NCBI GenBank assembly: GCA_964621445.1
Contig: CAZUNO010000005.1
Span: 57,338-121,337 of the forward strand
Origin: Candidatus Hadarchaeota archaeon
GTDB lineage: Archaea; CAYQAE01; CAYVLA01
Length of the DNA: 64,000 bases
Reading direction: 5' to 3'
The number at the start of each line of letters is the position of its first letter. Position 1 is the stretch's first letter. The notes beneath the pieces are model-generated. The model saw nothing but the letters and a program-made list of their open reading frames with translations, had not been told where the DNA came from and did no database searches. A program made the translations under genes and the position numbers. Below, piece by piece: positions 8,901-55,609 of the stretch.

Positions 8901-10099
8901 ACATGGCTCTCCCACCTCTTACCGAGCAGGAGGTTACATTCACCTGGCATACCTCCACCGTTAATCCCGGGGAAAGGCCCATTTGGGCCCAAGCCCAACC
9001 CCTAGGCGGGGAGATCGATCTCGGGGATAACGATCTGAAAGGACCGGATATCAGGATCCTCTCCCCTCCGGAGATAGTGGTGAAATCGTTATCCCCCCGG
9101 AAAAGGCGGGCCAAGAGCGGGGAGGTAATCAAACTAGAGGTCGTTTTCGAGAACAGGGGCAGCCGGGCCCAGTTCTTCTCCTTCGACTTGATCTGGGGAG
9201 AAATCACCGTACTCACCGACAGCCTGACCATCGGGCCCGGCACCACCAATCCCGTTATCCTCGACTGGAATACGAGCGGGGTGAGTCCGGGCATCCGGCG
9301 AATAAGGGTGGTGACCGATTCCATTCCCTTTGAGGTCAACCCTAGCAACAATGATCTGGCCTCGGGCAGAATAGAGATAATGCCCCCTAATTCCCTCCCC
9401 ACCTCGATCCCCGGTGGTCCCTATGAGGCCCTTTCAGGCTTCCCCCTCCTTCTCAACGGCTCCAGCAGCTGGGATCAGGATGGAACCATCAACTCCTATC
9501 TCTGGGACCTGGGCGATGGGTCAAATGCCACGGGGCCTATTATCCACCATACCTATGAGGGGGCAGGGCGCTTTGATATAGGCCTCACGGTGATCGATGC
9601 TGATGGGGATTCTGCCACGGGGATCTCAACCGTCCAGGTCCTCAATACCTCAAGCATATCCATTTCTCCATGTAACGAGAATGGAACTACTAGAGATGTT
9701 TTCTCCTCCCAGGACGACATATACCTCGCCCTGGAAGCACCAACAAGCATCAGGGCCCGGGTGTATCTGGCCCCCAGATATTCCTATAACGAGAACGGGT
9801 CCTTAGGAGATGTGTCCATGGCCAGCCGCGCCATGATTACCGGAGCCGATGTCTCCCATCTGATCTGGCCGGCGAGGAATTCACTTCCAGGGAGCTACGA
9901 TCTGGTACTTGACGTGGATTCCGATGGAATATTTAATCCCCGAAGGGATCCCACCTACTCGTCGTTCCTGGTAATCCCAGAGAGATCGCTGTGGATCGCC
10001 CTCCTCGTCCTGCCCTTAATTCTAGCAATCCCAAAGAAAGAGTGTAACACATGGACCGAAAGCAATCAACCCACCTCCGATCGGCATTACTCCTTCTGA
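5939..10099 (+). CDS. Large secreted surface protein: ~6 IPT/Ig-like repeats, 2 CARDB-like domains, PKD domain, C-terminal IPE+TM sorting-like signal
   Basis: Signal peptide; repeated IxGxGFPPN units; CARDB-like NxG...F.W.T...G...ExxxxNN; PKD motif SSSWDQDGTINSYLWDLGDG...HTY...LTVID; C-terminal VIPE-hydrophobic-KK. Confidence 0.85.
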   Translation: MPISRSKLLILAYSLGLLAVLSTASGVEPPSEYRLPEHLWIKEHGSPATEWAQYANSSDPLKLSSSYSKLDIAYVVRSRDPDEVVNTTLIIYRNSMTRKRFLDNGTLLKNEISINWPQGYQNETNVSVEPFWVWRETKGSGDSYMGYSYYLFLATFDPCRYSGYFQLRVNVTGLPGGSSWQSPDGNPNVPWTFFNLPSESSVEVEPYRPGSPLRASSRINVTAFGQPAKGTPARSDYEILIDGKSWATGTCYGSSFFLNGRHIPRYLEPGTHTITVICGEVASSTPLITTQWQVELEAVVNATIPGGPPITLRGRGFPPNEHFSIYHGPPGGNKSSLCSGAISPHGNFTVNYSFPKNTSLGIHNLTASATQLSGPPTAWALVSLDPWSVNLTVQPEVLYQGEFLWINGSRYPADSHFEIYIDGDVLYSANTDKNGTFSHRVWTLNPDFSPGLHTISANATGYGGPPCGMVHIEVLEFNATLSVSPKGPHPGTDIRISGSGFPPNALMEVTLSSQVLGQTVSSHKGGFNYVCTIPDQFPLGEHQLRAIAIDYDGPTLGSLPINITGWPVEVEVADAGWHPGGWVSLTGCGMPPQSSFELTINETALGEWQSDADGRFQVTTDLPMSLKNLTYLIKIAVPGYSGPPTWVRTVSIRGWKPQLDLTPRNARPGEMIEVNGHGFPRERKFQVLLDGNDLGAGTTSSNGTLNAYIFLARNASTGTHILNLSLDFPNLTPTLENFTIIDWNPALRIQPWFGGPETEISLSATGFPPNNPIIIHWDEEQVKTVASSSNGSIQETIDCSGEENQYHHIHLGTQEGFTGSPSASAFFYLGQDPPSPSIYAANSTGNSLSCYFPNQTVFCSGVGLPPTEASLHTINRSNDQVIVTETINIGPGGGFHLPIMENISIPGTYGFWMDLNGNLIVDSNDQRSPDFECRTRPEIGLKSLKPDKTCAVQGEAIDIRLTAVNDGDHADDVTILLHHGETRIGSLNMALPPLTEQEVTFTWHTSTVNPGERPIWAQAQPLGGEIDLGDNDLKGPDIRILSPPEIVVKSLSPRKRRAKSGEVIKLEVVFENRGSRAQFFSFDLIWGEITVLTDSLTIGPGTTNPVILDWNTSGVSPGIRRIRVVTDSIPFEVNPSNNDLASGRIEIMPPNSLPTSIPGGPYEALSGFPLLLNGSSSWDQDGTINSYLWDLGDGSNATGPIIHHTYEGAGRFDIGLTVIDADGDSATGISTVQVLNTSSISISPCNENGTTRDVFSSQDDIYLALEAPTSIRARVYLAPRYSYNENGSLGDVSMASRAMITGADVSHLIWPARNSLPGSYDLVLDVDSDGIFNPRRDPTYSSFLVIPERSLWIALLVLPLILAIPKKECNTWTESNQPTSDRHYSF
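6830..8420 (+). repeat. About six tandem ~90-aa GxGFPPN Ig-like repeats
   Basis: GRGFPPN, GSRYPAD, GSGFPPN, GCGMPPQ, GHGFPRE and ATGFPPN at roughly 270-nt spacing, each followed by a GxF motif. Confidence 0.75.
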
Positions 10100-11895
10100 C
10101 TGGATCCATCTTGTTGGCCGTAATAACTGGGATGGGCAGCGGAGGCTCTGGCGAAGGCCCCCAGGAGGTCTCACTCAGCATTCGAGATCAAGGTCAAAGG
10201 TCGACTCCCTTCTTCATAACCGGGGAGAATTCAACCACCTCCCTCGTCGCAACCGCCTTATTTACCATCCCCTCGGGTTCCATGATGCCCTACTCCGGGG
10301 GCGATTTCATCTGGATTACGCCTGGAGGAAGGGAGATAGCGAGAACCTGGAGGAAGTTCCAGTATCTAGGGTCCAATACCTTTAGGGCCGTGGCCGAGAT
10401 CGAGGCCAACCTGACCACCTTTCCACCAAACCTCCAACCCTACGCCTTGACCGTGGCCGCCGGTGATTGGGAGGTATCGGAGCATTTCCACATATGCGGG
10501 GACTCCTCAACCCTAATGGATGAGGATTTCTCGTCCAGCCAGGTAGGCTCCCTGCCCTCGGGGTGGCAAATAGAGGAGCCCGGGTATTCCCCCAACGCCC
10601 AGTGGGTGAAGGAACTGACCTTTGAAGGAAGAAACAAGGTTCTCAGGATGACCAGCTATATTGACCGGCCCGCGGTACTCAACCGTTCATTGAACATCTC
10701 CTGCAGCCACCTCTCCTTCTCATTCAGAGCCAGGCTGGAGGAGGAAACCAGATCTAACGATGACAGGGTAACCGCCATGTGTATCGAACTTGTAGGTCAG
10801 GACCCATTCCAGCTACTATGCCTGGGTAGGAGCGACAAGCGGGAGGATCTGCATTTCGGAATACCGTACGAACAGGGGGAATGGATCCGATTCACCGTTT
10901 ATCTAGATCTCGACCCCGCGGTATCGAGCTATTCCGTATACATGAACGATCAACGCCTGGGCAGCAGGTCCCTTCCCGGACTCCGACCAGAGGACATAAC
11001 TGCCCTCCGTTTCTCCCTGGGGTCAGGTGCCCACTACGTGGGCCAGTTCGACGATATCCGGGTGGACCAAATTCAGCTAGACGCCGGAGATCGCAGCCAG
11101 CCAGCCCGGTTATACCTTAATGTGGGAACAAGGTACGGCCAGTGGTTCGATCCCAGTAGCATGGTGGTAAACTGCACCGTGGACGTTACACCCTGTAAGA
11201 AAACCAATCCCTACCTCCAGGTAGATGGCTTCAGGATTGAGCTCTGGAACTCGACGACGAGGATTGGCACCCTGAATACCATGAGCTGGAACGACACCTC
11301 CACCTGCAAATCGCCATGCCAGGTCATCTCCCACCCCAAGAGCCTAACAATTGACCCCCACCTCATCGACCGCTTTAACTACTCCGATTTCTCGGGAGAT
11401 TACATCCTAAGATGCCTCCCTGCTGACCCCTCATTGTCCCTGCTCAACCAAAGTCTACCCTTCCATATCGATGACCCCATGCAAATCCATTTCTCCCGTT
11501 GGCCGGGTGGACCGCCAGTTAGCCCTGCCGTCTTCCCCAAACCGGCCAACGTCTCGGTAAACGTCGAACTCGACCCCCAGGGGAGGTCGGGCAATGGAAC
11601 CCATACTTTTGGTGATAAGAGCTGCCATATGTCATGGATTCACCCCGATGGGACCATAGCAGAAAACCAGACCCATTACATGAGCACTGACCTGGCCTAT
11701 CCCTCGGAACGGGCCTGGGTTTTTGGCACATTGAAGGTTAGAAGGGACTTTCCAACAGGGCTCTATTCCTGTCTCGTCTCGGTGAAATGCGACTCGGGGT
11801 ATGAAATCGTGGAGAGAAGGGAATTCAGAGTGGCCCAATCAATGATACACCTAATCCCCTGCCTGGTCCTGTTATCGGCGCTGGGAAAAAGATAG
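10051..11895 (+). CDS. Secreted/membrane-anchored protein with a concanavalin A/LamG-like beta-sandwich and Ig-like domains
   Basis: N-terminal hydrophobic signal; EDFSS...GxLPSGW...W..F.VYLD...Y.VY.N...FDDIRV pattern typical of LamG-like domains; C-terminal hydrophobic helix + KR. Confidence 0.65.
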   Translation: MDRKQSTHLRSALLLLTGSILLAVITGMGSGGSGEGPQEVSLSIRDQGQRSTPFFITGENSTTSLVATALFTIPSGSMMPYSGGDFIWITPGGREIARTWRKFQYLGSNTFRAVAEIEANLTTFPPNLQPYALTVAAGDWEVSEHFHICGDSSTLMDEDFSSSQVGSLPSGWQIEEPGYSPNAQWVKELTFEGRNKVLRMTSYIDRPAVLNRSLNISCSHLSFSFRARLEEETRSNDDRVTAMCIELVGQDPFQLLCLGRSDKREDLHFGIPYEQGEWIRFTVYLDLDPAVSSYSVYMNDQRLGSRSLPGLRPEDITALRFSLGSGAHYVGQFDDIRVDQIQLDAGDRSQPARLYLNVGTRYGQWFDPSSMVVNCTVDVTPCKKTNPYLQVDGFRIELWNSTTRIGTLNTMSWNDTSTCKSPCQVISHPKSLTIDPHLIDRFNYSDFSGDYILRCLPADPSLSLLNQSLPFHIDDPMQIHFSRWPGGPPVSPAVFPKPANVSVNVELDPQGRSGNGTHTFGDKSCHMSWIHPDGTIAENQTHYMSTDLAYPSERAWVFGTLKVRRDFPTGLYSCLVSVKCDSGYEIVERREFRVAQSMIHLIPCLVLLSALGKR

Positions 11896-11920
11896 ATTAG
11901 CGTACTGACTAATTATCTCC

Positions 11921-12829
11921 ATGAACCGCCCACATCACCGACCAAGACAGCGTTGCTGGTCCTGTATCACCGATATCGCAATGGAGGCCCTAAACAGGGC
12001 CACAGATGATGAGGAGACCAGATTTGACGTAATGAAGGAGATAACCGGAATCATGGCTTCCGGGTTGGACAGGGAAACCAATCTCCCCGTTCTGAGCACC
12101 GAGATCTTCAGGCTGATATCTAAACGCACGAAAAACCCCGACCCCTTCAAGGTAGAGAAGCAGGAGTGTAATAGAACCGCCAAGCCCATAGCGGATAGGG
12201 TCTCCCGGGAGATCATGGACATAAAGGATCCCCGGGAGAGACTTGAACGGGCATCACTGGCATCCATTGCCGGCAATACCATGGATTTCGGAACCAGCGG
12301 GCACACATTTGACCTGTCCTCTTTCGAGGAAGACTACCAGAAAACCCTGGATGAGGGACTGGCCATTAACGATTCCAGGCCCCTGGCTCGGAGGTTACCC
12401 GAAATGGGTTCCGTAATCTATCTTGCAGACAATGCGGGAGAGATAGCCTTTGATAGGATACTGGTCCGGGTGATATCCGACCTTGGCCCCCGGTTAACCG
12501 TAGCCGTCAAGGGTGGACCGATATCCAACGATGCCACCATGGAGGACGCTAATTTCGTGGGCATGGACCAGGTCAGCAAGGTAATCACCACCGGAACCGA
12601 TCACCTGGGAGTTAACTTCGAGGAATCCCCCCCTTCTTTCCTCGAGGCCTTCCGCTCATCGGACCTGGTGATCAGCAAGGGCCAGAGCAACTTCGAGACC
12701 CTTTCCTTTAACCTGGAAAAAATCAGCAACCCAATCGCATTCATATTAAAGACCAAGTGCGCTCCCATAGCAAGGTCCCTAGGGGTAAATCTGGGGGACA
12801 ACGTACTAGGACTAGTCGAACCCGAGTAG
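11921..12829 (+). CDS. DUF89/ARMT1-like damage-control metal-dependent phosphatase
   Basis: N-terminal CxxC, DPFK.EK..N, AGNTMDFG, DNAGE..FD, PISNDAT and KGQSNFE motifs. Confidence 0.9.
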   Translation: MNRPHHRPRQRCWSCITDIAMEALNRATDDEETRFDVMKEITGIMASGLDRETNLPVLSTEIFRLISKRTKNPDPFKVEKQECNRTAKPIADRVSREIMDIKDPRERLERASLASIAGNTMDFGTSGHTFDLSSFEEDYQKTLDEGLAINDSRPLARRLPEMGSVIYLADNAGEIAFDRILVRVISDLGPRLTVAVKGGPISNDATMEDANFVGMDQVSKVITTGTDHLGVNFEESPPSFLEAFRSSDLVISKGQSNFETLSFNLEKISNPIAFILKTKCAPIARSLGVNLGDNVLGLVEPE

Positions 12830-44615: not shown

Positions 44616-47600
44616 CTAAATGAAGTCCCCAAGGCTCATCTGAGGGGCTTCCCGGGTCTCAATCGAATTGAAATTGGCCCTTATCATTGAAACCTGCAGA
44701 TTTGATTCCCCTCGGTCCATCTCCAGCGGCGAGGTTTCAACCAGATCCAATAGGGACGCAACATCGACCTCGATGGAACAGGGCACTACCTGACCCGAGC
44801 AGTCGCAGGTACCGCTGAGGGGAATTCTCCTATAGGTTTTCCCACACTTACCACACACGAACTCCCTGGTGCCTCCCCTCATGGCCGCAGTTTTGGCCAG
44901 CTCCGTTACCTCCAGGACCACGCTCCTGCAGATCTCCACCTCCAGATCCTGCCCGCAGTCCGGACAGCTGAAGTCCCTAAGATCCATGATGGTAAATGAT
45001 CGACCACAGCTCCCGCATACGTACTCCTCTAGTTCGTGCCCTAGAACGGGGTAGCTCTTGAGTTTCGGTTTTGGCTTTGGTTTGGGTTTTGGCTCCTTCT
45101 TGGACTTCCCTCCTCCTAGGGCATCCAGCAGGGTAAGCTGGGAGGAATCGGCGACTAGCTCATCGATGTCAAGCTCGAGAGCATCGAATATTCTACGAAC
45201 CGGGGGAAGTATCTGTCGCCTTATGTAATACTCGTGATCCAGGTTTATATCATGCTCTCGTACGTAGGTCGGGTCCTCTGACCTCTCAACCAGCAGGCCA
45301 TTCCCATGGGTTATCACAAAGGGAACTCTACTGCCCACCTCGGGAGCACTGGCTGGATCCCTTCTTCTCATCCTCTCACAGAGCTCCGCATGAGGCTGTC
45401 TTCCCTTGTATTCGCTGGGGCTCTTGCTCAGGGTTCTGGTTTGGATAAGCTTTTCCAGGGGTATTCTGTCCTCCCTGAGATCCTCGATAAGAGATTTCAT
45501 GTACTTCGATGCTTCCTCAATTTCACCCTTTCTGAGCAGGAGGTCAAGGACCTTCTTCATGGCCTCGGTGGCCTGGTTGCACCACTCTCTTCGAACCGTT
45601 TCCAGGCCCTTGACCTTCATGGGCGGTTCCTTGCCCTCCATGAACAGGGCGTACCTCTTCTTGGTAACGAATAATGCCCTCTGTGAAAAGGCCTCGTATT
45701 GCAGCTCCATGGGCTCAGGTAACGAGTCGCTGAGGATCTCCCCCATACGAGCTCCAAGGGAGGCCGCATCCTCTACAGGAATCCCTTTCCTATCAGTACC
45801 GACCGGGTTCATCTTAACGAAAACGCTGTCGGTGTCCCCGTAAACAACCTCCAGCTCCACCTCGGTCAGGCCCTCCCTATCCTCCACCTCATCTTCCAGG
45901 AAGGCCTTTCCATTTCCCAGGTATGCTCTCATCAATTCGGACTCGATGATCCTCTTAGTCTCGGTAATGGTCTCCCTACCGGTTCTGGTAACGGTGTTTG
46001 CTATGGTCAGCTCGTACATGCGAGACCGAATGTATCCAAAATAACCGTAGAAGCTGTTGAGGAGTATCTTTACAGCCAGCTGTGTCATGTCCAGGATCCT
46101 GTACTGGTCCCCCTTTTCGACCTTCTTGAGCTCCCCCTTTAGGAGGAGTCTCTTTTCCAGGAGCTCCTCCAGGATCCTGGGCACGATACCCTTGTACTTG
46201 TCCTTACTTACGAACTTCCCCTTATCCAAGGTCGAGAAGCAAATATTATTTGCGATCATGATCGTTGGATACAGGGATTTGTAATCCATCACGATTACGT
46301 TCTCCTGGAGGCCGCTCCTGGGCTCCAGAACATGACCTCCCTTCAGCCCCTCTTCCTTTCTAACCCGACGCCTCTTGGCGGTCTCCTCATCATCGGGCTT
46401 ACAGGGCATGACCCTCTCGTAACGACCAAGCTCTCTCAGGAGTAGATTATCAATCATGATGGACTGACCAGCCTCCACCAGGTCCTGCAAAAGGGTTCCG
46501 CTCACCTGGGCCAAGGCCACATGCTTGTCAAGAAGTCCCTTGGATAGGAGTATATCCAGGGGCAATATCGCGTCCTTTCTGGAATATCTAACCAGCTTTT
46601 CAAGCCCTTTGCCCTGGCTCTTCCAAAGGGTCGGTATCTCGGTATGGTGGACATCGACCTTGTCCTGACCCAGAATCTCCTTTGAAACCGCTCCCAGCCC
46701 GTAGCGCTTGAATGCGAAATCGCTCCTGACCAGGGGGAGAACATCCACAACCACCCGTCCGGTTATGCTGATGCTGGTCCTGTTCCCGAAACTACGATAA
46801 TAGCTATTCTTATCCGCCCTTCCCATCTTGGGTTTCACGCCCAGCTGCCTCATGCGGTCGATTATATAGGGAAAGTCGAACTGATTGGAGTTGTAGCCCA
46901 GGAGAACATCGGGGTCAAATCTCCTGAGTATATCAAGGAACCTCCCCAACATTTCCTCCTCGTTTTCAAAACCCTGAGCGCCGTCAATTGATACCGGGCG
47001 GCTGACCAGCACTAGATCCTCTCTGCCCTCAAAAGAGGGGTTGAAGGCCAGGCTGATCATGATGATGGGGTCCATCTCGGGCTTTGGCATCCCATCGCCG
47101 CTCTCGGCCAGGCACTCTATATCCAGGCAGAGGTACCTTAGGTCCGGGTGCTCCTCTATATCGCTGGAACCAAGGTTATTTGATATGGTCTCCAACTTGA
47201 TTTTGGTGTTGACCGTCTTAGTTCTAGTGGGGCGGTAGTTCTCAACCCGTATCCAGCTATTGGGCTTGAGGCCGGTGTCTATTAGAAACCTATTCTTGAA
47301 CAGGATGTCGGCCTCGTATATGGTTCCGTACTCCTTTACGGACTCCCTGAGATCCCTCACATTCTTGGGCTCCTGGGCCACGATGAGAAGCATCTGCTTC
47401 TTCTGCTTCTGGTATCCGAAAGGAGTGTACCTCTCCACGATCCTAACATCATTTATCTTCTTGAATCTCTGCTTGAGCTCCTCGCTCAGGGCCCCCAGCG
47501 AATCCCGGGAGTCCAGGCCGGGGTTTAAATAGAAATAGGGCTTGAAACCCCTGACGAAGACCGTGGTGCTCCGGTCGCTTTCATCCTTGCAGAATAGACG

Positions 47601-47672
47601 AATCACCGGGTCTCCGCTGCTTTCATATGAATAATCGGCCCCAAGCAGATAAAGGGGAATGGCATTAGTCAT
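44616..47672 (-). CDS. polB: Family B DNA polymerase with unusual C-terminal double Cys4/PolD-like extension
   Basis: ExoI DIE, ExoII YN..FDFPY, ExoIII Y...DA, PolA DYKSLYPT, PolB K...NSFYG, PolC YGDTDS, KKRY, KGLETVRR; followed by ~170 extra aa. Confidence 0.95.
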   Translation of the reverse strand: MTNAIPLYLLGADYSYESSGDPVIRLFCKDESDRSTTVFVRGFKPYFYLNPGLDSRDSLGALSEELKQRFKKINDVRIVERYTPFGYQKQKKQMLLIVAQEPKNVRDLRESVKEYGTIYEADILFKNRFLIDTGLKPNSWIRVENYRPTRTKTVNTKIKLETISNNLGSSDIEEHPDLRYLCLDIECLAESGDGMPKPEMDPIIMISLAFNPSFEGREDLVLVSRPVSIDGAQGFENEEEMLGRFLDILRRFDPDVLLGYNSNQFDFPYIIDRMRQLGVKPKMGRADKNSYYRSFGNRTSISITGRVVVDVLPLVRSDFAFKRYGLGAVSKEILGQDKVDVHHTEIPTLWKSQGKGLEKLVRYSRKDAILPLDILLSKGLLDKHVALAQVSGTLLQDLVEAGQSIMIDNLLLRELGRYERVMPCKPDDEETAKRRRVRKEEGLKGGHVLEPRSGLQENVIVMDYKSLYPTIMIANNICFSTLDKGKFVSKDKYKGIVPRILEELLEKRLLLKGELKKVEKGDQYRILDMTQLAVKILLNSFYGYFGYIRSRMYELTIANTVTRTGRETITETKRIIESELMRAYLGNGKAFLEDEVEDREGLTEVELEVVYGDTDSVFVKMNPVGTDRKGIPVEDAASLGARMGEILSDSLPEPMELQYEAFSQRALFVTKKRYALFMEGKEPPMKVKGLETVRREWCNQATEAMKKVLDLLLRKGEIEEASKYMKSLIEDLREDRIPLEKLIQTRTLSKSPSEYKGRQPHAELCERMRRRDPASAPEVGSRVPFVITHGNGLLVERSEDPTYVREHDINLDHEYYIRRQILPPVRRIFDALELDIDELVADSSQLTLLDALGGGKSKKEPKPKPKPKPKLKSYPVLGHELEEYVCGSCGRSFTIMDLRDFSCPDCGQDLEVEICRSVVLEVTELAKTAAMRGGTREFVCGKCGKTYRRIPLSGTCDCSGQVVPCSIEVDVASLLDLVETSPLEMDRGESNLQVSMIRANFNSIETREAPQMSLGDFI
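45059..45100 (-). repeat. (KP)n low-complexity linker in PolB (AARCCN hexamer repeats)
   Basis: KKEPKPKPKPKPKLK between the PolB thumb and the Cys-rich extension. Confidence 0.8.
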
Positions 47673-47739: not shown

Positions 47740-48252
47740 TCACTGTTCCTGGGGCGAGGCCTCCTCTGCCTCGACCTCCTCCTCATCCAATTCAAATTCC
47801 CCCTCTTCCCATTCCATTTCCTCTCCTCCACCACGCTTGTCCTTAACGTAGAAAAGTCCTGCAATTACGAACATGATAATCCCAACCCAAAGCATCCACC
47901 TGAGCATGATCACTTCCTCGTTCTGTGATGGCTCCTCCCCGTATCTCATAAGGTCCCTGTACCATAATTCGGTGTACAGGCCGACCACTAGAAACACGGC
48001 GGCCAGGATTACCACGGCCTTGATGAACCCGAAAGAACCCTCGGCTCCCTCCGAGACAACGTCGGTGTCTGGAAGCCCGGATATGGCCTGTTTGACATGC
48101 TCCTTCTCCACCATATCGGCTTCCGACATCTCGGCTGCCTTTTCGGAGTCCTTCTCTATCCTCCTAAGGACCTTATCGATCTCCGCCGCGTTTCCGGGGA
48201 TTTTCTCCCTCCTCGATTCCAAAAATTCCTTAGCTCCAGTACTCCATTCCAT
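47740..48252 (-). CDS. Small membrane protein: N-terminal helical domain (PCP_red-like), 2 TM helices, acidic tail
   Basis: MEWSTGAKEFL....KIP......RRIEKDSEKAA......VEKEHV..A resembles the BchB C-terminal PCP_red pattern; two hydrophobic helices. Confidence 0.6.
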   Translation of the reverse strand: MEWSTGAKEFLESRREKIPGNAAEIDKVLRRIEKDSEKAAEMSEADMVEKEHVKQAISGLPDTDVVSEGAEGSFGFIKAVVILAAVFLVVGLYTELWYRDLMRYGEEPSQNEEVIMLRWMLWVGIIMFVIAGLFYVKDKRGGGEEMEWEEGEFELDEEEVEAEEASPQEQ

Positions 48253-48342: not shown

Positions 48343-51060
48343 CTAGGCCTCTGCCCGCTGGGTATCATCCACTTCCCTTTCCGCCCCATCTCGGATCACC
48401 ATTGAACCCAACATGAGTTCATCAATCTCCGATACGAAAACCGGTGAAAGGTCTTTCATATCCCTCACGAAGAAAATACGACCCCCTCCTATGTCGGCGA
48501 TCTGTTGGGCCAGCCGCGGATTATACCACTTTGACTCCCCATCCTCGTCCACATCCCCGATACATACCACGGAGATGGTTATCCCGTACTTGGCGGTCAT
48601 CCTGGCACATCTGCGTGCATACTCGGCGGCGAATCTTTTCGGCTTAGGATGAGTGGCATCGCCATCCGTTAGCAGTATGACCTGCTTCCTACGTTCCGAA
48701 ACGACTTCCGGGTCATTGGAGCCCGGCTCCATATCCTTAAGGTCGCCAACCAATAGGTCCAGTGACCTCCTCAACCCGGCAGCGATGTTGGTTCCACCCT
48801 TTGGTAGCAAATTCGCCACCTCGGCAAGGGTCGTGTTTCGATCGGACCCCAAATCTGTGACCTCGGTGGAAAGGTCCCTGAAACCAACCACACCTACCCG
48901 ATTACCGTATCTCTCCGCTATAAGATTAAGCACCACTATGGCCTGTTTCGCGTACCATAGCTTATCTCCGTAGGCCATGCTCCCTGAGAGGTCCAGCACC
49001 ACCACTATATCCACGTCCCCCTCTGCCATGAGTTCACGCTTTTCCGGTTCCCTTTCGTAGACATAGAGGTTATCCCTTTGGACATCATCCCGACCATCAC
49101 GTATGGCATCCCTGATGGTTTCTCGAATGGCTATGTCCTTGTAGGAATCCCCTCTCCTATACTTTCGAACGTCCTTGATCTCCGAGCTGGGCAAGGGAGG
49201 AAGCTCCTGGTAGGAGACTCCGCGAAGCGCTGCATCAATCCTTTTCATAATCTGGTCATCGACATCGGACACCAGGAACCTCGATATCCTATGGGTAAAT
49301 GAGATTTTATCCTCTGAGCCATTGATCAGCCCCTCCCTCTCCAGATGCTTCCTCAAAGCACCCACGGGATCACCCTTTCCCTGTTTCGGTTCCGGTCTGT
49401 TTAGAATAGAGGCCAGTGCCGGGTACTGATCGGTCTTTTCCTTTGCTAGATCGGCGATATCCTCAAGAGATGCTCTGGTTCCCGATCTTTCCGCGTAAAG
49501 CTCGTCCCTTGCAGTCGAAATCTCCTTTACGGCCCTGCCTAGGTCATCGCCCTCTAATTCGCCGGAAAGCAACGAGGATTTCTCCGAGATATTGTTATAG
49601 AGACTGGTCAGGGGTTCCCAATCGATGCCAAACCTCTCTCTAATGCTTGACATCACCCTTGAATCCCTGATCCAACCACCCATATCCAGGTAATCAAACA
49701 CAAAGGTAGCTAGAAAGGTCATCGCCCCAAAAAGGCCCACCAGAAAAAAAGGCGATATGTTGTCGAAGGCGTGAGGAGGATCCATACCATTACCGGGTCC
49801 CGCGGAACCTTCCCCGGTCTGGCCTAGAACCCTTCCAGTGTAATTCTCGACCACCCAGGTTCGATTCTCATCCTGGACATAGAGACTGTCCGTATCCCCG
49901 TCATATGTTATCGTCGCGTTACTGCCCGGGTCGACCCCGGTCTCCTCGCTTATCTCACCCATTATGGAGTCCGGTATGTCGGTAACCTCCGTTCCCCCAC
50001 TGACATTGGTACCATCCGCGACCTCCCTCAAGTCGTCGGATAGATTGGGCATGTCCTCGTCGATATTGCCGGGATTTGCATTGTCTACTATTAGAAAGGC
50101 CACCAGGCCAAACACCAGTATGGCGCAGGCCACCATGATCGGGGTTCTATACCGTAAGGACCCGCCTGGTCGCTTTGATGAGGACTCCTTCTCCTCCTTG
50201 GCTCCTAGGAAAACATCCTGGAGAAGATTTCTAGCCACTTCCCGGTTACTCTTCCAGGAAAAGGGGTTGACCTTTATGGAATGGGACAGGGATGAATTAC
50301 ACGAGTTATACAGGTCTCTCTCCTCCGGTTCCCGTCCCGAGAGCTCGCTGCTGGCTGACACGTTTTCCACAAACCTCACGCCGGCCCTGGTGCTTGCTCC
50401 CTGTTCTAGATCGGGATGCCTTCTGCTTCTTTCCAGAAATCTCGAGGCGATATCGGGAACGTAATCCGGAACTGGAGCCAGAGTTTGGGACTTGGATCGT
50501 ATGTATTCCTTTTCGAGATCACGGTCCTCTGGATAGGAAACGGTCACTACCTGGAAATGATCCAATAGTTTGGGATCGATTTGATCTGATGTGGCCAGGG
50601 CAATGATCCTTGCATCCACATCAACCTTATACTGGAAGATCTCAATCATCCCGGTGTCCAAGAAATCCGCCAGGGCCATCGTTAGCTTCCGTGGCATGTT
50701 GTCGATATCCCTGAACAGTATCGCTCCCCCGTCGCTCTTCTCGATAATTCCGGGTATGTAGGATCTATCGTCCGAGAATCCGTATTCCTTGAGGGCCAGG
50801 GGATCAACATCTCCAAACAAGTCCACATTTCTCAGATTGGACGAGCAGTTAACCCTATCTGTATCTAGATCCAGCACTTCCAGGATAATGGAGGCCACGT
50901 TCTCCTTATCCACTCCCCGGGGACCGATGATCAGGATTGGTCTTCCAGTTAGGACGGATGATATGAGGTCAGCCTTCTCCCTTTCCGAAAGCAAGGTCTC
51001 GGATAGCTTCTCCTCCATCTCTCTGATCAGGGTCCTATTATCCTTCACCTGAGATACCAA
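48343..51060 (-). CDS. ChlD-like protein: degenerate AAA+ domain - TM - extracellular loop - TM - vWA domain
   Basis: Walker A GPRGVDKE and Walker B LFRDID degenerate; TMs IMVACAILVFGLVAFLIV and FFLVGLFGAMTFLATFVF; MIDAS DLSGS, GGTNI and LLTDG intact. Confidence 0.85.
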   Translation of the reverse strand: MVSQVKDNRTLIREMEEKLSETLLSEREKADLISSVLTGRPILIIGPRGVDKENVASIILEVLDLDTDRVNCSSNLRNVDLFGDVDPLALKEYGFSDDRSYIPGIIEKSDGGAILFRDIDNMPRKLTMALADFLDTGMIEIFQYKVDVDARIIALATSDQIDPKLLDHFQVVTVSYPEDRDLEKEYIRSKSQTLAPVPDYVPDIASRFLERSRRHPDLEQGASTRAGVRFVENVSASSELSGREPEERDLYNSCNSSLSHSIKVNPFSWKSNREVARNLLQDVFLGAKEEKESSSKRPGGSLRYRTPIMVACAILVFGLVAFLIVDNANPGNIDEDMPNLSDDLREVADGTNVSGGTEVTDIPDSIMGEISEETGVDPGSNATITYDGDTDSLYVQDENRTWVVENYTGRVLGQTGEGSAGPGNGMDPPHAFDNISPFFLVGLFGAMTFLATFVFDYLDMGGWIRDSRVMSSIRERFGIDWEPLTSLYNNISEKSSLLSGELEGDDLGRAVKEISTARDELYAERSGTRASLEDIADLAKEKTDQYPALASILNRPEPKQGKGDPVGALRKHLEREGLINGSEDKISFTHRISRFLVSDVDDQIMKRIDAALRGVSYQELPPLPSSEIKDVRKYRRGDSYKDIAIRETIRDAIRDGRDDVQRDNLYVYEREPEKRELMAEGDVDIVVVLDLSGSMAYGDKLWYAKQAIVVLNLIAERYGNRVGVVGFRDLSTEVTDLGSDRNTTLAEVANLLPKGGTNIAAGLRRSLDLLVGDLKDMEPGSNDPEVVSERRKQVILLTDGDATHPKPKRFAAEYARRCARMTAKYGITISVVCIGDVDEDGESKWYNPRLAQQIADIGGGRIFFVRDMKDLSPVFVSEIDELMLGSMVIRDGAEREVDDTQRAEA

Positions 51061-52073
51061 CCATAATCATGTAGAACTTCGAGGGCCTGTTTCTTTACCT
51101 CCGAATGGGGGGCTCCGGTAGCCGCGGGGAGAACCGAACAAAGGGCATCATATAGATCCTTAACCTGGGCAGAGCCGTTTCCGGAGATAAGCGAGTAGGC
51201 CTGGGTCTTCTCGAAGATCTTTATGCTCGCCCTCACGCTGGCCGGTTGGAAATTTGTGTTATTACCCCTTGTTTTTTGGGTTGAGGATGCAATAGCTTCC
51301 ATCATCTCCTCACCCACCTTAACTCCAAGATCCTTTGCCTCATTCTTTATTATCGTTGCCTCGTCCTGGATCCTATTGGGATAGGACATCTCTATAACGT
51401 CAACTCTATCAAGTAGTACGTCGATGAGGGGAACATCGCCAGACTCGGCGGAAAGATTGGATGTGGCTATCATAAGGAAATCCGCCGGGTAGTCCAGATC
51501 GTAACCCGAGATGGTGGCCTTCCCTTCATCAAGGACCTGCAAAAAGGCCCCCTGCAACCTCTGGGGCATCTTCGCAATCTCGTCGCAGAAGACTATCCCG
51601 TTATTGCCCTTGAGCAGTTTTCCCGGAGTGAAAGCCCGATAATCATCGGGGGAGTATTTGAAAGCCGCAACTGGATCTATGTCTCCAAGGAGGTCCTGGA
51701 CGGTTAGGTCAGGGCTTCCCTGAATTCTCACGAATCTCTCGAGGCCACTGACATTTCTTGTAGGGGCTCTCTCCGGGTCCATTTCCGAATCGCCGTATCG
51801 GCTCCTACAAACTGGACACGCAATCTGATCGGGCTGACAGTTGAACTCGCATCCCTCTATCACATTGATAGGACCCAGCATCTTTGCCATCTCCTTGGCT
51901 AGCGTGGTCTTTCCACAACCCCTTGGCCCCTTGAGGATGACATCGTGTCCGGCCACAATTGAGGCCAGGAACTGCTTCTTCGCTTCCCTCTGTCCAATTA
52001 TCCGGGATAGCGGATCCTTTCCCTCTCTCACCGACTTGATTAGGATTTCTCGGATCTCGGTTTTGACATCCAT
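51045..52073 (-). CDS. ChlI/MoxR-like AAA+ ATPase
   Basis: IIGQ, Walker A GPRGCGKTT, C-x3-C-x6-C-x2-C motif, RIQGSPDLT..DLLGDIDP, Walker B FCDE, ATSN, LLDR, sensor II SVRA. Confidence 0.9.
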   Translation of the reverse strand: MDVKTEIREILIKSVREGKDPLSRIIGQREAKKQFLASIVAGHDVILKGPRGCGKTTLAKEMAKMLGPINVIEGCEFNCQPDQIACPVCRSRYGDSEMDPERAPTRNVSGLERFVRIQGSPDLTVQDLLGDIDPVAAFKYSPDDYRAFTPGKLLKGNNGIVFCDEIAKMPQRLQGAFLQVLDEGKATISGYDLDYPADFLMIATSNLSAESGDVPLIDVLLDRVDVIEMSYPNRIQDEATIIKNEAKDLGVKVGEEMMEAIASSTQKTRGNNTNFQPASVRASIKIFEKTQAYSLISGNGSAQVKDLYDALCSVLPAATGAPHSEVKKQALEVLHDYGWYLR

Positions 52074-52332: not shown

Positions 52333-53154
52333 ATGCTCACAATTCAGGGAAATCCAGGGGGCAACGCAGGCTTGGATGAATATATATTATTCTCGAAAAA
52401 CGGAGAGGACTCCTTCGAGGTCAAGATTCCCTTTTCTTCCGACTCCTTGAACCAGGTCTCGGATCTACTGACCAAGCAAGGATTCCTAGTGGAAAGAAAG
52501 GAGATGGATAGGCTTCAGACCGAATTAGTCGAACTCAAGTCCATGCTAAGTGAAGTAAGGGAAGAAAACGAAAGCCTCGGTCGACTTCTCCAAGATATCC
52601 TCAAAGGACTGGACAGCACCAAGTCCCAAGGCGCTAACCGGGAGACCAAATCGGGACTGACCGATACGGGAACTGAGAAGATGAGAATCCCGGATGATAA
52701 GATCTCCATGCTCCCCTCCCCGGATACAAAGGCATTCAAGCTCATAAGCAAGCTGGCAAAGGAGCACATGGATGAGAAATTTACCACCTCCGGCCTAAGC
52801 CTGTACGAAAAGCGAGTTTTCTCCCTTCTAGTCAAGAGATATGAGTTCGCGAGAAGGGTGGGTAAGAAGGGTCGCAGCGTCGTATATACCTTCCACCCTC
52901 CGGCCCTTGAATCCCTATGCAAGGAGCTCGGCGGAAGGGCCATGATCTCAGTTCGTTCCCGGGTGAGATCGAAATCGGTGGTGGACTTCCTGGAAAAGAT
53001 GAAGGATAGATATCCCCATTTCTGTTACAGAGAGGTTCCCAGCCAAACCGGGTACAAGCAACATGAGCTTCTCTTCTCCGACAAGTCGGTCAGAAAATCG
53101 GTGATGGGCAACCTGACCCGGACCTTCGGGCCGAACAGCGTCAAGATCCTGTAG
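52333..53154 (+). CDS. Hypothetical protein with coiled coil and possible winged-helix domain
   Basis: Heptad-rich MDRLQTELVELKSMLSEVREENESL segment; basic helix-wing-like region (RVGKKGRSVVYTF). Confidence 0.55.
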   Translation: MLTIQGNPGGNAGLDEYILFSKNGEDSFEVKIPFSSDSLNQVSDLLTKQGFLVERKEMDRLQTELVELKSMLSEVREENESLGRLLQDILKGLDSTKSQGANRETKSGLTDTGTEKMRIPDDKISMLPSPDTKAFKLISKLAKEHMDEKFTTSGLSLYEKRVFSLLVKRYEFARRVGKKGRSVVYTFHPPALESLCKELGGRAMISVRSRVRSKSVVDFLEKMKDRYPHFCYREVPSQTGYKQHELLFSDKSVRKSVMGNLTRTFGPNSVKIL

Positions 53155-54121: not shown

Positions 54122-55609
54122 TTGAGAAGAACCCTTCCCATACTGCTCTTGATCCTTATATTCTCCCCGATTTCGGTCTTTTCTTTCGCCGAAGTTGAGA
54201 GAATGCCCTACTTCGTCAAATCCCAAGGCGGGAAGACGATTTACTGGAACGAATCCTATAGGATCCTCGCCGGCGACCTGGAACTCCAGCTGGTAACCGG
54301 TACAGCACGGGTATCCGACCAGTTTGGTGACCGGATGCTGGAATGGGATCCGGAAATAATATCCATAAAGGTCGAAGACGAGGAGGTAATGCGTAGAAAG
54401 ACGCTTGAATTCATCTCCGACGATCCCCTCCTCAACATGCCTTTCCTGGGGATAGGCGGCGTGGTGTCCCCAACAAATGAGATAATGGGACTAACCCCTT
54501 CGGGGGCACCCGCATCCAATTTGGAGTGGGGAGAGAAAGGAGAGGAAGGTGTTGTGTCCTGGTCTACCTCGTATCAATACAAGGCCGGGGATAGAATATC
54601 ATGGCTTAATAGGTCCTTCCTGCTGAATGCGAGCCTTAAGATCGATTGTGAATTCACGGTTGTGGATGCATATCAGGCCATGGAACAGAAGGTAATGGTC
54701 ACCAACGGGGACGAATCCCAGTCCCTTCCCTTCCCCCTGGAGACCGCGTTCTGCCTGGGCTCCTCATTTGAGGAAAAGGCCTTGAGCCTGCCAAATATGA
54801 CCCTTGAACCCGACAGGTACTTCACCTATCCGGCCACCGACCTTCCCGTCCAGTGGTATGACCCCGCCTCAGATTCCTACAGCCTGCCGGGATCCATGTG
54901 GTCGGAGGATGATCTTCCCGGACTTCTATATACCGAGTTTGATCTTCAAAACCGCGACTGGTTCGGCGCAGTAACCGAAACCCAGATATCCTATCAAATG
55001 CAGGGAGGCGCGGGGGTGAGGGTGCTTTCAAGCCAGGGATTTGAAGATTTCCGCCCCTATTCCATGTTCATCTCCGGCGAGGATGACCACATGGTATTCG
55101 GGTTCAAACCGTACAGCCAAGCCGGGAGTTACGATGATTTCACACCCATGACCGTTGATCCGGGTGAACAAGCATCACTTGAACTCCTTTGGTTTTTCCC
55201 GGAGTCCGAGGGGGAAACCATGGGACTGTCCGACCTCGAGGAGTTCGCCAACCAGTCCATCTCAGTTTCGCAATTCGTCCAATCGGAGAAGGACGCGGAA
55301 GAGCTCTTCAAGGAGGCTAATTCCCTGGCCGCTGATGGCCAGATGGTCCAAGCGGTCGACAAGGCCACCTCGGCCTTCCTCACCTACCAGAATCTGGGAA
55401 AGATTTCTGACACCATGCTGGAGGAGAGCCGCAACATCAATACCACGATAACAACCTGGAGGAACTCAGCATCCGACCCCGAACCCCACCCAGAAAAGGG
55501 GGATAGGAGCGCCATGTTCATCACCCTGGGGATCTTCCTGGTTCTATTAATCTCGATTTCGTTCTGGGTCTATGTCATCAAGCCACGCCGTGCACAGGGA
55601 AATGATTAA
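54122..55609 (+). CDS. Exported protein with beta-sandwich body, helical stalk and C-terminal TM anchor
   Basis: Signal peptide, acidic body, helical A..LF..A......A...A..A segment, TM + KPRR. Confidence 0.7.
   Translation: MRRTLPILLLILIFSPISVFSFAEVERMPYFVKSQGGKTIYWNESYRILAGDLELQLVTGTARVSDQFGDRMLEWDPEIISIKVEDEEVMRRKTLEFISDDPLLNMPFLGIGGVVSPTNEIMGLTPSGAPASNLEWGEKGEEGVVSWSTSYQYKAGDRISWLNRSFLLNASLKIDCEFTVVDAYQAMEQKVMVTNGDESQSLPFPLETAFCLGSSFEEKALSLPNMTLEPDRYFTYPATDLPVQWYDPASDSYSLPGSMWSEDDLPGLLYTEFDLQNRDWFGAVTETQISYQMQGGAGVRVLSSQGFEDFRPYSMFISGEDDHMVFGFKPYSQAGSYDDFTPMTVDPGEQASLELLWFFPESEGETMGLSDLEEFANQSISVSQFVQSEKDAEELFKEANSLAADGQMVQAVDKATSAFLTYQNLGKISDTMLEESRNINTTITTWRNSASDPEPHPEKGDRSAMFITLGIFLVLLISISFWVYVIKPRRAQGND

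Follow-up and report, generated by a model that had tools for sequence, protein, structure and literature searches.

A pair of overlapping archaeal genes encodes an AAA+ ATPase and a vWA-domain adaptor. The linker of the adaptor seems to make two passes through the membrane, and none of the relatives examined shares this layout. The pair lies within a 64,000-nucleotide stretch of DNA, here called the window. Judged by sequence and by analogy with better known systems, it may be a membrane-tethered, repurposed remodelling motor of the ChlI-ChlD/MoxR-vWA type, with a probable origin in a soluble system of CODH/ACS gene clusters; this reading is given about an even chance of being right. The ATPase (I subunit) is followed by the adaptor (D subunit), which consists, from N- to C-terminus, of a degenerate AAA module, a first hydrophobic helix, a sequon-rich loop of ~110 aa, a second helix, a conserved linker and a vWA domain. 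The features are as follows.

51045..52073, minus strand: I subunit, active ChlI-like AAA+ ATPase, 342 aa (ORF, Pfam, PDB)
48343..51060, minus strand: D subunit, ChlD-like adaptor, 905 aa, or 901 from the GTG start (ORF, homologues)
51045..51048, minus strand: GTGA junction, GTG start of D (901-aa form) over TGA stop of I (sequence)
50164..51060, minus strand: degenerate AAA+ module, D residues 1-299, paralogous to I (BLASTP, motif table)
50086..50145, minus strand: hydrophobic helix 1 (TM1), aa 306-325, after KRPGGSLRYR (Kyte-Doolittle peak 2.90)
49759..50085, minus strand: predicted outside loop, aa 326-434, 109 aa (six N-x-S/T sequons; small helix and three-strand unit)
49690..49758, minus strand: hydrophobic helix 2 (TM2), aa 435-457, then IRDSRVMSSIRER (Kyte-Doolittle peak 2.02)
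49012..49689, minus strand: juxtamembrane segment and linker, predicted cytoplasmic, aa 458-683 (alignment, profiles)
48448..49011, minus strand: vWA domain, aa 684-871 (Pfam; DLSGS at nt 48979-48993, then T and D)
47740..48252, minus strand: 170-aa protein, membership uncertain (two hydrophobic segments, acidic C-terminal tail)
52333..53154, plus strand: 273-aa protein, divergently transcribed, membership uncertain (ORF)

Both ORFs of the pair were confirmed at these coordinates, overlapping on the minus strand. The 905-aa length of D in the preliminary description holds for an alternative TTG start at 51060; the database protein (P0001) begins at the GTG four codons in and is 901 aa long. 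The GTGA overlap implies that translation of I and D is coupled. The earlier reading as a pair of the ChlI/ChlD type, in which I is active and D joins a degenerate AAA module to a vWA domain, is backed by Pfam, PDB matches, paralogy and the states of the motifs.

The best Pfam match of I is Mg_chelatase (2.1e-16, 60.4 bits against a cut-off of 20.3), followed by AAA_3, and ChlI/BchI head its PDB matches, at about 1e-10 (ChlI 6l8d, 6.7e-11). All ATPase motifs are retained in its sequence, including Walker A GPRGCGKT and Walker B FCDE. A Cys4 insert (CEFNC...CPVC) follows Walker A and is common to the relatives of I, where the Cys columns are invariant. Identity of I is 74-78% inside the family with the transmembrane (TM) form and 41-51% to about 1000 stand-alone relatives. 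Within the family, I is more conserved than ThrRS (68-69%) or PolB (64-65%, from two full-length matches, L002 and L003), which speaks for purifying selection to keep the ATPase functional.

The best matches of I, to ChlI/BchI, would suit the motor of a class I chelatase of tetrapyrroles (Mg, Co or Ni). The vWA part of D also matches TIGR02442, ‘putative cobaltochelatase’ (1.2e-11), and some I homologues are called ‘Mg-chelatase subunit ChlI’ in source databases (JGI names). The layout is likewise that of ChlI/ChlD (BchI/BchD) and CobS/CobT, in which an active AAA+ protein of ~340 aa adjoins an adaptor with a weakened I-like AAA, a long linker and a C-terminal vWA/MIDAS domain. A chelatase is nevertheless disfavoured and highly improbable, as scores are far under the equivalog cut-offs (BchI-ChlI 58.8 against 466.95; TIGR02442 43.8 against 779.45) and the clusters that hold the nearest relatives are of the CODH/ACS and not the tetrapyrrole kind. 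The absence of CobN/ChlH from the window, remarked on earlier, was borne out and extends to the 96%-complete genome, in which no PF02514 gene was found by a search to which control genomes responded. The linker of ChlD is soluble, acidic and proline-rich, whereas that of D is a hydrophobic hairpin with a predicted outside loop.

The N-terminus of D aligns with I at 25% identity (BLASTP, E 1e-22), the DLFGDVDP of D pairing with the DLLGDIDP of I. Its Walker A reads GPRGVDKE and its Walker B FRDID. Across the family, the Walker A Lys is retained and the Ser/Thr replaced by Glu or Asp in 10/10 members, while the Walker B Glu is changed to Ile or Leu in 9/10. The Arg finger is kept in nine of the ten members, with His in the D of the window, and the sensor-2 Arg is also present in nine. 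AF2 models residues 1-299 with pLDDT 70-90. Because the Walker B Glu and the Walker A Ser/Thr are lost, the module would be incapable of ATP hydrolysis; the motif states establish an I-like docking module that mostly retains a trans-acting Arg finger.

The two hydrophobic helices and the outside features of the loop were proposed earlier from the window alone, and both recur across the family, the helices in 10/10 homologues and 3/3 further loci. In a Kyte-Doolittle analysis with a 19-residue window, peaks in all ten homologues range from 1.9 to 3.0, being at least 1.96 for helix 1 and at least 1.91 for helix 2. The flanks before TM1 and after TM2 are rich in K/R, and clusters of these residues occur at these two cytoplasmic flanks only. 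The loop of the window D holds exactly the six sequons first listed (NLS, NVS, NAT, NRT, NYT and NIS), a density of 5.4 per 100 aa, compared with 0.93 for the remaining protein. Loop density is 3- to 16-fold above that of the remaining protein in 10/10 members, and loop sequons exceed those of composition-matched shuffles in every member (P <= 0.0375 in all, <= 0.0085 in 9). The description of the loop as acidic stands for the window D (24 D/E, 3 K/R) and fails for P0004 and P0010, two of the ten, where it is net basic. An in-out-in topology of D fits the hydropathy, the K/R-rich flanks and the sequons.

The segments may instead belong to a soluble protein as buried or amphipathic helices, or form a monotopic anchor that leaves the loop in the cytoplasm. 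AF2 gives them low confidence (pLDDT < 50), and sequons alone are no proof of an outside location, as one conserved in 9/10 falls in the vWA domain. This alternative is improbable given mean hydropathies of 1.9 to 3.0 (19-residue stretches, 10/10 members), modelled helices of 21-25 residues, the placement of the K/R clusters and the sequon density, and soluble relatives examined have no such pair of segments.

The AAA-hairpin-vWA layout is kept in all 10 full-length homologues of D (52-61% identity) and in 3 further metagenome loci; D is therefore not a product of chimeric assembly, an error that the preliminary description had considered. The TM form was found in one archaeal family, where it occurs in 4/4 species genomes (0/1 in the sister family). 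Of the other 149 best matches among 1.84 billion representatives, none carries a pair of hydrophobic segments in the interval from AAA to vWA. The TM form of the pair is thus rare, being found in a small group of uncultured archaea. Literature searches found no description of an AAA-TM-TM-vWA architecture, which agrees with the earlier proposal of an undescribed membrane system; the pair is more aptly described as a repurposed variant, specific to one lineage, of a motor type already known.

In sequence, both subunits are closest to the proteins of a soluble system encoded in CODH/ACS gene clusters. Its loci are termed type A (31 loci, 27 complete and 4 cut, in which a soluble AAA-vWA protein comes after I), and a description of this system was not found in the literature. 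The gene set comprises an I homologue, a CooC-like NTPase (beside the I homologue in 29/31), an optional CdhC (12/31), the soluble AAA-vWA protein and an optional CODH, with a Prismane/CODH-family gene in three of the six loci with sampled flanks. Walker A is intact in 27/27 complete type A adaptors, and those examined have no paired hydrophobic segments. The TM form and type A share 44-50% identity in I; the D profile matches type A proteins at E 1e-62 to 1e-32. In the tree of I, the TM-form clade (support 100, stem of 1.3 changes per site) falls within a 97-supported clade holding all type A rows; the root being arbitrary, a sister relationship to type A is as compatible with the tree as descent from it. 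The TM-form pair probably descends from, or is sister to, this soluble system. It differs from type A in having no CooC-like neighbour. No CdhC (ACS), CODH or close CooC was found in the genome of the window, whose sole Prismane gene encodes a hybrid-cluster protein; the original client set of the soluble system is missing from this genome.

The region between TM2 and the vWA domain has two parts. The first ~80 residues are family-specific and, with invariant columns, among the most conserved of D. From about aa 540-570 on, the linker, with its KYRRGDSYKDIAIRETIRD motif, is common to soluble relatives, and profile stretches starting at positions 533-568 match the soluble P0019, P0027 and P0028. 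TM-form D and type A adaptors thus have in common a stretch of the linker together with the motif ahead of the vWA domain. The linker sub-profile matched TM-form family loci only, and no Pfam family matched the segment. The vWA domain of D matches VWA_2 (PF13519, 7.9e-14), VWA (PF00092, 4.1e-10) and VWA_CoxE (1.1e-8). The MIDAS DLSGS...T...D is identical in 10/10 family members, a complete site, as first described. AF2 models the domain poorly. All the topologies considered place it in the cytoplasm, though it holds the well-conserved sequon (9/10) mentioned above.

NorQ/NorD and CbbQ/CbbO, MoxR-class AAA+ proteins with a vWA adaptor that act in metal insertion or client reactivation, follow the same module logic, and NorQ/NorD can have a membrane enzyme (cNOR) as client. 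The family profile matches NorQ weakly in PDB (2.3e-4). NorD is soluble and reaches its membrane client from the cytoplasm, whereas the adaptor here is predicted to be membrane-embedded. In addition, I is of the ChlI type and not core MoxR, and D has a full extra AAA-like module absent from NorD. Docking of the vWA finger in the pore and of the N-domain on the ring, with stretching of the linker by ATP turnover, is the mechanism proposed for NorQD in passages of PMC13036017, and repositioning of the vWA domain to the pore is described for CobST in part of bioRxiv 10.64898/2026.10.09.757910. By analogy with both, I would assemble as a hexamer, with the vWA domain of D docked at the pore and the N-terminal module on the ring. 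ATP turnover would rotate one end of D against the other and strain the linker, and the MIDAS would hold an acidic residue of the client. The strained linker would here be the membrane hairpin with its highly conserved juxtamembrane segment, so that the motor would act at the inner face of the membrane. Its task would most likely be the assembly of, or metal or cofactor insertion into, a membrane-bound client, and the putatively glycosylated loop would be mainly an anchor and spacer. The His at the Arg-finger position of the window D (Arg in 9/10) and the poor AF2 models of hairpin and vWA domain count against this mechanism.

With six D subunits under an I hexamer, after the older two-tier view of ChlI/ChlD, the twelve helices might form an ATPase-powered channel or translocon, with a topology that would resemble FtsH. 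The retained Arg finger and sensor 2 of D are features of ring-forming subunits, and two-tiered hexameric double rings are reported for CobST and ChlID in part of bioRxiv 10.64898/2026.10.09.757910. Such a pore is decidedly improbable, since recent NorQD and CobST structures, in passages of the same preprint and of PMC13036017, show a single vWA adaptor per hexamer, located at its pore. By inspection of the alignment, conserved polar or charged lining residues are absent from both helices, and the surroundings hold no evident genes for a substrate or for secretion.

The loop may be more than a spacer, to judge by its conserved sequons and a mini-domain that seems able to fold. Three sequon columns are conserved (7/10, 9/10 and 9/10), as is a stretch with the consensus YD..TD.LYVT.GN.TWV..NYT, and residues of about 350-405 are modelled as a helix and three strands (pLDDT 60-70, AF2). 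A transmembrane mechanical or signalling device, the bolder reading of the preliminary description, is accordingly a possibility, if on the unlikely side: strain on the hairpin by ATP turnover would move the loop (inside-out), or a ligand bound to the loop would shift the helices and gate the motor (outside-in). The hairpin occupies the force-bearing linker segment described in passages of the NorQD work (PMC13036017), and the strong conservation after TM2 also speaks for a device. Elsewhere, however, the loop is the most variable region of D in length, charge and sequence. It has no Pfam family and matches no known sensor or binding domain, and no extracellular partner gene was singled out among the neighbours.

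The neighbourhood does not discriminate a client, because every neighbouring gene, PolB and ThrRS included, is syntenic in every family locus. The gene for the 170-aa protein is flanked by those for D and for the family-B DNA polymerase; it has no family match and occurs in 5/6 family loci (about 1 kb from D in L002, L012 and L013), the sixth, L001, ending about 0.9 kb after D. The 273-aa protein is 58-75% identical in 6/6 loci, with no Pfam or NCBIfam match and Atlas leads only (0.80 or below).

Two further systems may be compared with the membrane-tethered motor. CoxE lacks both an AAA module and a hairpin, and the domain layout of D differs from that of CoxD/CoxE. D nevertheless resembles CoxE in its VWA_CoxE match (35.3 bits against a cut-off of 26.4). 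CoxD/CoxE of the aerobic Mo-Cu CO dehydrogenase are an AAA+ ATPase and a vWA protein in metal-cluster maturation, according to passages of PMC4240915; CODH of either kind was not detected in the genome of the window. The MoxR-vWA modules of archaea and bacteria whose vWA partners are membrane or secreted proteins (arCOG01314 neighbourhoods, Bat operon) are a precedent for AAA+/vWA pairs with envelope proteins, and part of Makarova et al. 2015 (PMC5898192) predicts a module of a COG0714 ATPase and a secreted vWA protein beside membrane proteins. In arCOG01314-type modules, the vWA domain is predicted outside and the ATPase is of the MoxR/GvpN type, whereas here both AAA and vWA are predicted inside and only the loop outside. 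With a score of 23.3, the BatA model stays below its cut-off of 380.

The gene of the ChlI-like AAA+ ATPase (I) and that of its ChlD-like adaptor (D) are arranged as follows.

51045-52073, minus strand: I gene, a 342-aa ORF, upstream of D
48343-51060, minus strand: D gene, a 905-aa ORF; the database form begins four codons later, at GTG

The GTG start of D and the TGA stop of I share two bases (GTGA), and because of this overlap the two genes are considered to be translationally coupled. The I protein is a member of the ChlI family of AAA+ ATPases, matching PF01078 (Mg_chelatase) of Pfam at 2.1e-16, with 60.4 bits against a cut-off of 20.3. Second to this is a match to PF07726 (AAA_3, the MoxR group) at 3.1e-13, which covers residues 113-224 only. 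The closest solved relatives in a PDB search are ChlI/BchI, at about 1e-10. The Walker A (GPRGCGKT) and Walker B (FCDE) motifs are intact, and Walker A is followed by a four-cysteine insert whose columns are invariant in the alignment.

The preliminary description regarded the N-terminus of D as a degenerate paralogue of I. This has held: the identity is 25% (E 1e-22), with DLFGDVDP aligned to DLLGDIDP. Across the ten family members, the Lys of Walker A in D is invariant, the next Ser/Thr is Glu or Asp in all ten, and the Walker B Glu is changed to Ile or Leu in nine. The sensor-2 Arg is retained in nine of the ten, as is the Arg finger, where the D of the window itself has a His.

50575-50577: His at the Arg-finger position of the window's D, His162 in the 901-aa numbering and His166 in the 905-aa numbering

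By these motif states, the N-terminal module looks incapable of ATP hydrolysis, yet its shape would still let it take a place in or on an AAA+ ring. At its C-terminus D has a vWA domain (VWA_2 7.9e-14, VWA 4.1e-10 and VWA_CoxE 1.1e-8 in Pfam). Its MIDAS, previously reported as intact, is identical in residues (DxSxS...T...D) in all ten members.

In its domain content the pair resembles the class I chelatase motor, which likewise combines a ChlI-family ATPase with intact Walker A and B and an adaptor in which a linker joins an I-like AAA module to a MIDAS-bearing vWA domain at the C-terminus. Unlike that motor, it is found in a genome without the ChlH/BchH/CobN large subunit, and the linker of D carries two hydrophobic segments in all ten members. 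The lack of ChlH/CobN, first noted for the window, now extends to the archaeal genome to which the window belongs (3.21 Mb, 96.2% complete), where PF02514 has no match; the same search was positive in five of 14 reference genomes. In NCBIfam, I falls below the BchI-ChlI equivalog threshold (58.8 against 466.95), while D scores 43.8 against the 779.45 cut-off of TIGR02442 and is absent from the matches of the BchD-ChlD equivalog model. It would be most surprising if the pair were a chelatase.

The pair is similar to the MoxR-vWA pairs (NorQD, CbbQO, RavA-ViaA and CoxDE) in that a neighbouring gene, here an overlapping one, codes for a vWA protein whose MIDAS is complete. Such pairs usually have a defined client enzyme with its gene close by. 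The Bat-type membrane-anchored vWA proteins (BatA/BatB), with an N-terminal anchor and the vWA as their main soluble domain, are unlike D, which has an AAA module and an internal hairpin and scores 23.3 bits with the BatA model NF047508, against 380. The nearest precedent is the MoxR plus secreted-vWA modules predicted beside archaeal membrane proteins (PMC5898192), whose layout differs from the form with two helices and a loop between AAA and vWA (the TM form).

The two hydrophobic stretches of D, aa 306-325 and aa 435-457, have Kyte-Doolittle means of 2.90 and 2.02 and enclose a loop with the same six sequons that were originally listed. Both score 1.9-3.0 in all ten homologues and are also present in three further family loci. 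The loop of the window's D is 109 aa long, with six N-x-S/T sequons; 24 of its residues are acidic and 3 basic, and clusters of K/R precede the first stretch and follow the second. It had been described as acidic, which is correct for the window's D; as the loop is net basic in two of the ten members, acidity is no family trait. The density of sequons per 100 aa is 1.8-6.6 in the loop against 0.13-0.93 in the rest of the protein (10 members). Loop sequons exceed composition-matched shuffles in every member, with P <= 0.0375 in all and <= 0.0085 in nine. Three sequon columns of the loop are conserved (7/10, 9/10 and 9/10), and one conserved sequon is also found within the vWA domain.

Archaeal N-glycosylation marks segments that face outside, and the positive-inside rule for the flanks of membrane proteins is established. 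An AF2 model of D made from a 10-sequence alignment is weak overall (mean pLDDT 59.6), too much so for fold searches; in it the AAA module is confident and the vWA domain mostly below 60. Both hydrophobic stretches are modelled as long helices, and loop residues ~350-405 as a helix and three strands at pLDDT 60-70. Hydropathy, the K/R flanks, the sequons and the AF2 model are the grounds for predicting a membrane hairpin with its loop outside. ChlD is soluble. An explanation of the helices of D without a membrane is unlikely, and that a D ring makes a pore is slightly more improbable still. A complex prediction with the TM-loop-TM module (residues 292-470) in four copies scored 0.00, with controls not folded and the partner fold uncertain, and so counts neither for nor against.

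A PepSY-like or other known fold was considered for the loop and rejected, as Pfam searched to E 10 gave only chance-level matches (DUF2283 0.12, Fn3-like 0.17). No known domain was found by Pfam in the linker after the second helix (best Zw10_N, 0.15), and residues 290-625 of D had no usable match in the Atlas.

A word-indexed search of 5.8 billion proteins returned ten full-length homologues of D, none of them named, at 52-61% identity, and beyond these nothing above noise. When 1.84 billion representatives were searched exhaustively with a profile, one full-length family representative and two fragments came first, ahead of a tier of proteins 684-805 aa long (E 1e-62 to 1e-32). Of the 2335 profile matches, the best 150 were inspected for hydrophobic segments, and the hairpin layout between AAA and vWA was found in none of the other 149. 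At a strict threshold these 149 contained only N-terminal anchors and one unrelated tail; at the permissive threshold of 1.6, segments occurred in 26, nearly all single and marginal, again with no hairpin layout. The protein P0055 was considered as a split TM form and rejected, being an active I-type ATPase that lacks a vWA domain and whose hydrophobic tail, rich in Gly/Ala, is unrelated.

In the species-level genome set, where the phylum comprises five genomes, the I/D pair is present in all four of the window's family and absent from the single genome of the sister family. Only one small family of uncultured archaea has the TM form. A chimeric assembly, which the preliminary description had raised as an objection, is ruled out because the same layout recurs in 13 independent occurrences. 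The architecture is real and conserved. It is apparently without precedent: no paper on a membrane-spanning ChlD-like protein was found in the literature searched, most subscription journals lying outside it.

Relatives of I are numerous. Their family consists of stand-alone ATPases of ~345 aa, with 1042 matches at 41-51% identity in anaerobic archaea and bacteria, named at source as ChlI, MoxR ('MoxR family ATPase') or AAA family ATPase. One homologue, P0036 (755 aa), has a large insert in the sensor-1 region, after which ...HNTMNPED... resumes by eye; from its sequence, the insert looks like an intein.

The genes downstream of I-like genes were profiled with local HMMs in 80 metagenome loci. 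The TM form is present in three, where I is at least 75% identical. Type A, the soluble relatives in CODH/ACS gene clusters, accounts for 27 loci and four more that are cut by contig ends. Here, I is followed after 0.7-2.7 kb by a soluble protein of ~730 aa, in which Walker A is intact and a helical linker leads to a vWA domain. Type B (22 loci) has an I homologue, 41-44% identical, overlapping or abutting a vWA-only protein of ~395-411 aa with DUF58/CoxE-like features and without a second AAA module. A fused form is found in one locus. No partner was found in 23, of which 17 have less than 1.2 kb downstream of I; the other six extend at least 2.3 kb past I, still with no vWA gene.

L023, L025, L027, L028, L033, L043, L046, L047, L051, L078 and others, e.g. 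L047:3410-8976: type-A operon
L066-L091, e.g. L072:5989-8203: type-B loci

In type A, a P-loop NTPase of the CbiA/CooC type comes right after I in 29 of 31 loci, and the gene for acetyl-CoA synthase beta (CdhC) then follows in 12 of the 31. A Prismane/CODH-family gene comes after the adaptor in three of the six loci with sampled flanks. The operon order in many anaerobes is ChlI-like ATPase, CooC/CbiA NTPase, (ACS beta) and soluble AAA-vWA protein, in some cases with a CODH-family gene last. This operon may be an undescribed ATP-driven helper of Ni-Fe-S cluster assembly in CODH/ACS; no paper on a ChlI/vWA pair in CODH/ACS clusters was found in the literature searched, which leaves out most subscription journals. 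In five type-A loci ACS beta is divided between an ORF of 252-317 aa and a following one of 109-126 aa, which match successive parts of the Pfam model; a recoded codon, a frameshift or a stop in frame could account for this.

L025:7222-8613, L028:7874-9262, L033:7969-9372, L051:4165-5535 and L078:8068-9261: split ACS beta

The TM form is related to type A. In a quick maximum-likelihood tree of 79 I sequences, with an arbitrary root, the I subunits of the TM form group with those of type A: all 30 type-A rows fall in one clade of support 97, separate from the main type-B clade, and the TM form branches within it as a clade of its own (support 100), with a long stem of 1.3 changes per site. In the D profile, the vWA domain, a pre-vWA motif and the end of the linker are common to type-A adaptors; what is specific to the family is the hairpin and the ~80 highly conserved residues that follow it. 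The CooC-like NTPase gene beside I, found in 29 of 31 type-A loci, is absent from all six family loci, and the genome of the window is without ACS and CODH, the presumed type-A client. The Walker A pattern seen in all 27 complete type-A adaptors occurs in none of the three TM-form adaptors in the loci and none of the ten family proteins.

Within that genome, CdhC (PF03598) has no match, and the single Prismane-family gene is a hybrid-cluster protein/hydroxylamine reductase (788.8 bits). CooC-like matches are weak (best 1.8e-6, 24% identity) and lie elsewhere than I. Besides D there is just one other VWA_2 gene. With CobN/ChlH, CdhC, CODH and a close CooC all missing, the pair here is neither a tetrapyrrole chelatase nor a CODH/ACS helper. 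Across the family I is 74-78% identical, exceeding PolB (family-B DNA polymerase) or ThrRS over the same loci. This conservation, together with the missing clients, points on sequence grounds to a functioning ATPase that has been given a new job.

From domain content, motif state and gene coupling onwards, the mechanism is a matter of inference. It has been reported for NorQD that a vWA finger enters the pore of the AAA+ hexamer while the N-terminal domain of the adaptor binds the ring, that the partner stimulates the ATPase, that the linker between the docking ends is stretched as ATP turnover turns the vWA end, and that MIDAS and linker grip the membrane client cNOR (PMC13036017). In CobST the vWA domain is repositioned to the pore by ATP (bioRxiv 10.64898/2026.10.09.757910). 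Mapped from this template, the docking ends of D would be its I-like module and its vWA domain, and the linker would be the hairpin plus the juxtamembrane segment. By analogy, there is about an even chance that the pair is a membrane-tethered remodeller with its client at the inner face of the membrane.

The preliminary description had proposed such a remodeller, possibly gated by or transmitting force to an extracellular domain; its observation is confirmed and its interpretation partly supported. The sequon-rich loop, predicted to be outside and modelled with a helix and strands, would suit the second half of that proposal, in which strain is handed to, or arises from, the loop. The loop reading is a tentative one, clearly behind the remodeller at the inner face. 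In it, ATP hydrolysis by the I hexamer would twist the vWA end of D against its N-terminal end and so pull on the hairpin. The pull would move a glycosylated extracellular mini-domain, or an event outside would gate the motor. More doubtful again is the fullest form of this idea, a first AAA+/vWA motor with a force-bearing linker through the membrane, giving prokaryotes a cross-membrane mechanical signalling device made from chelatase and CODH-maturation parts.

AAA+/vWA pairs, among them the chelatases, NorQD, CbbQO and midasin, are a widespread means of using ATP to pull or twist a client, and the transmission of force by the adaptor linker is only now being resolved. A natural membrane-hairpin linker would put the linker-strain model to test in a new setting, and would show that this type of motor can be wired to the membrane or the cell exterior. 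The architecture suits a timely mechanistic question, though within a small uncultured lineage. The type-A system, the probable parent, has the wider reach: many anaerobes carry it among genes for CooC-like proteins, acetyl-CoA synthase and CODH. Should it be an ATP-driven helper of Ni-Fe-S cluster assembly, it would bear on the maturation of one of the oldest carbon-fixing enzymes.

On the strand of the pair, the neighbouring genes encode p170 (170 aa, two helices), PolB and ThrRS. Upstream of I are the divergent p273, an M28 peptidase, p495 and a GNAT protein.

52333-53154, plus strand: p273, 273 aa, divergent from I; 58-75% identical across loci
54122-55609, plus strand: p495, 495 aa, well conserved; a hydrophobic N-terminal segment and C-terminal stretch by eye
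44616-47672, minus strand: PolB, 1018 aa, family B

The block from GNAT to ThrRS is syntenic in all family loci. The neighbourhood comparison called for earlier thus found a conserved gene order and singled out no client gene, since with all neighbours syntenic everywhere none can be picked. The sister-family genome G001 was rejected as a synteny control as too distant, its PolB being 33% identical and an I orthologue lacking. No Pfam or NCBIfam family was found for p273, p495 or p170, and p273 had only leads in the Atlas, at <= 0.80.

The acidic tail of p170 was considered as a ligand for the MIDAS and dropped as unsupported, because an extra ~1 kb parts p170 from D in three of the six loci. 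This spacer, which holds at least one ORF, is missing in the window, L003 and L014.

L002 ~11640-12780, L013 ~9680-10820 and L012 ~9750-10720: extra ~1 kb between D and p170

PolB lies just downstream of the pair, on its strand, in five of the six family loci, L001 ending earlier. Its C-terminal extension has several CxxC pairs after a lysine/proline-rich stretch.
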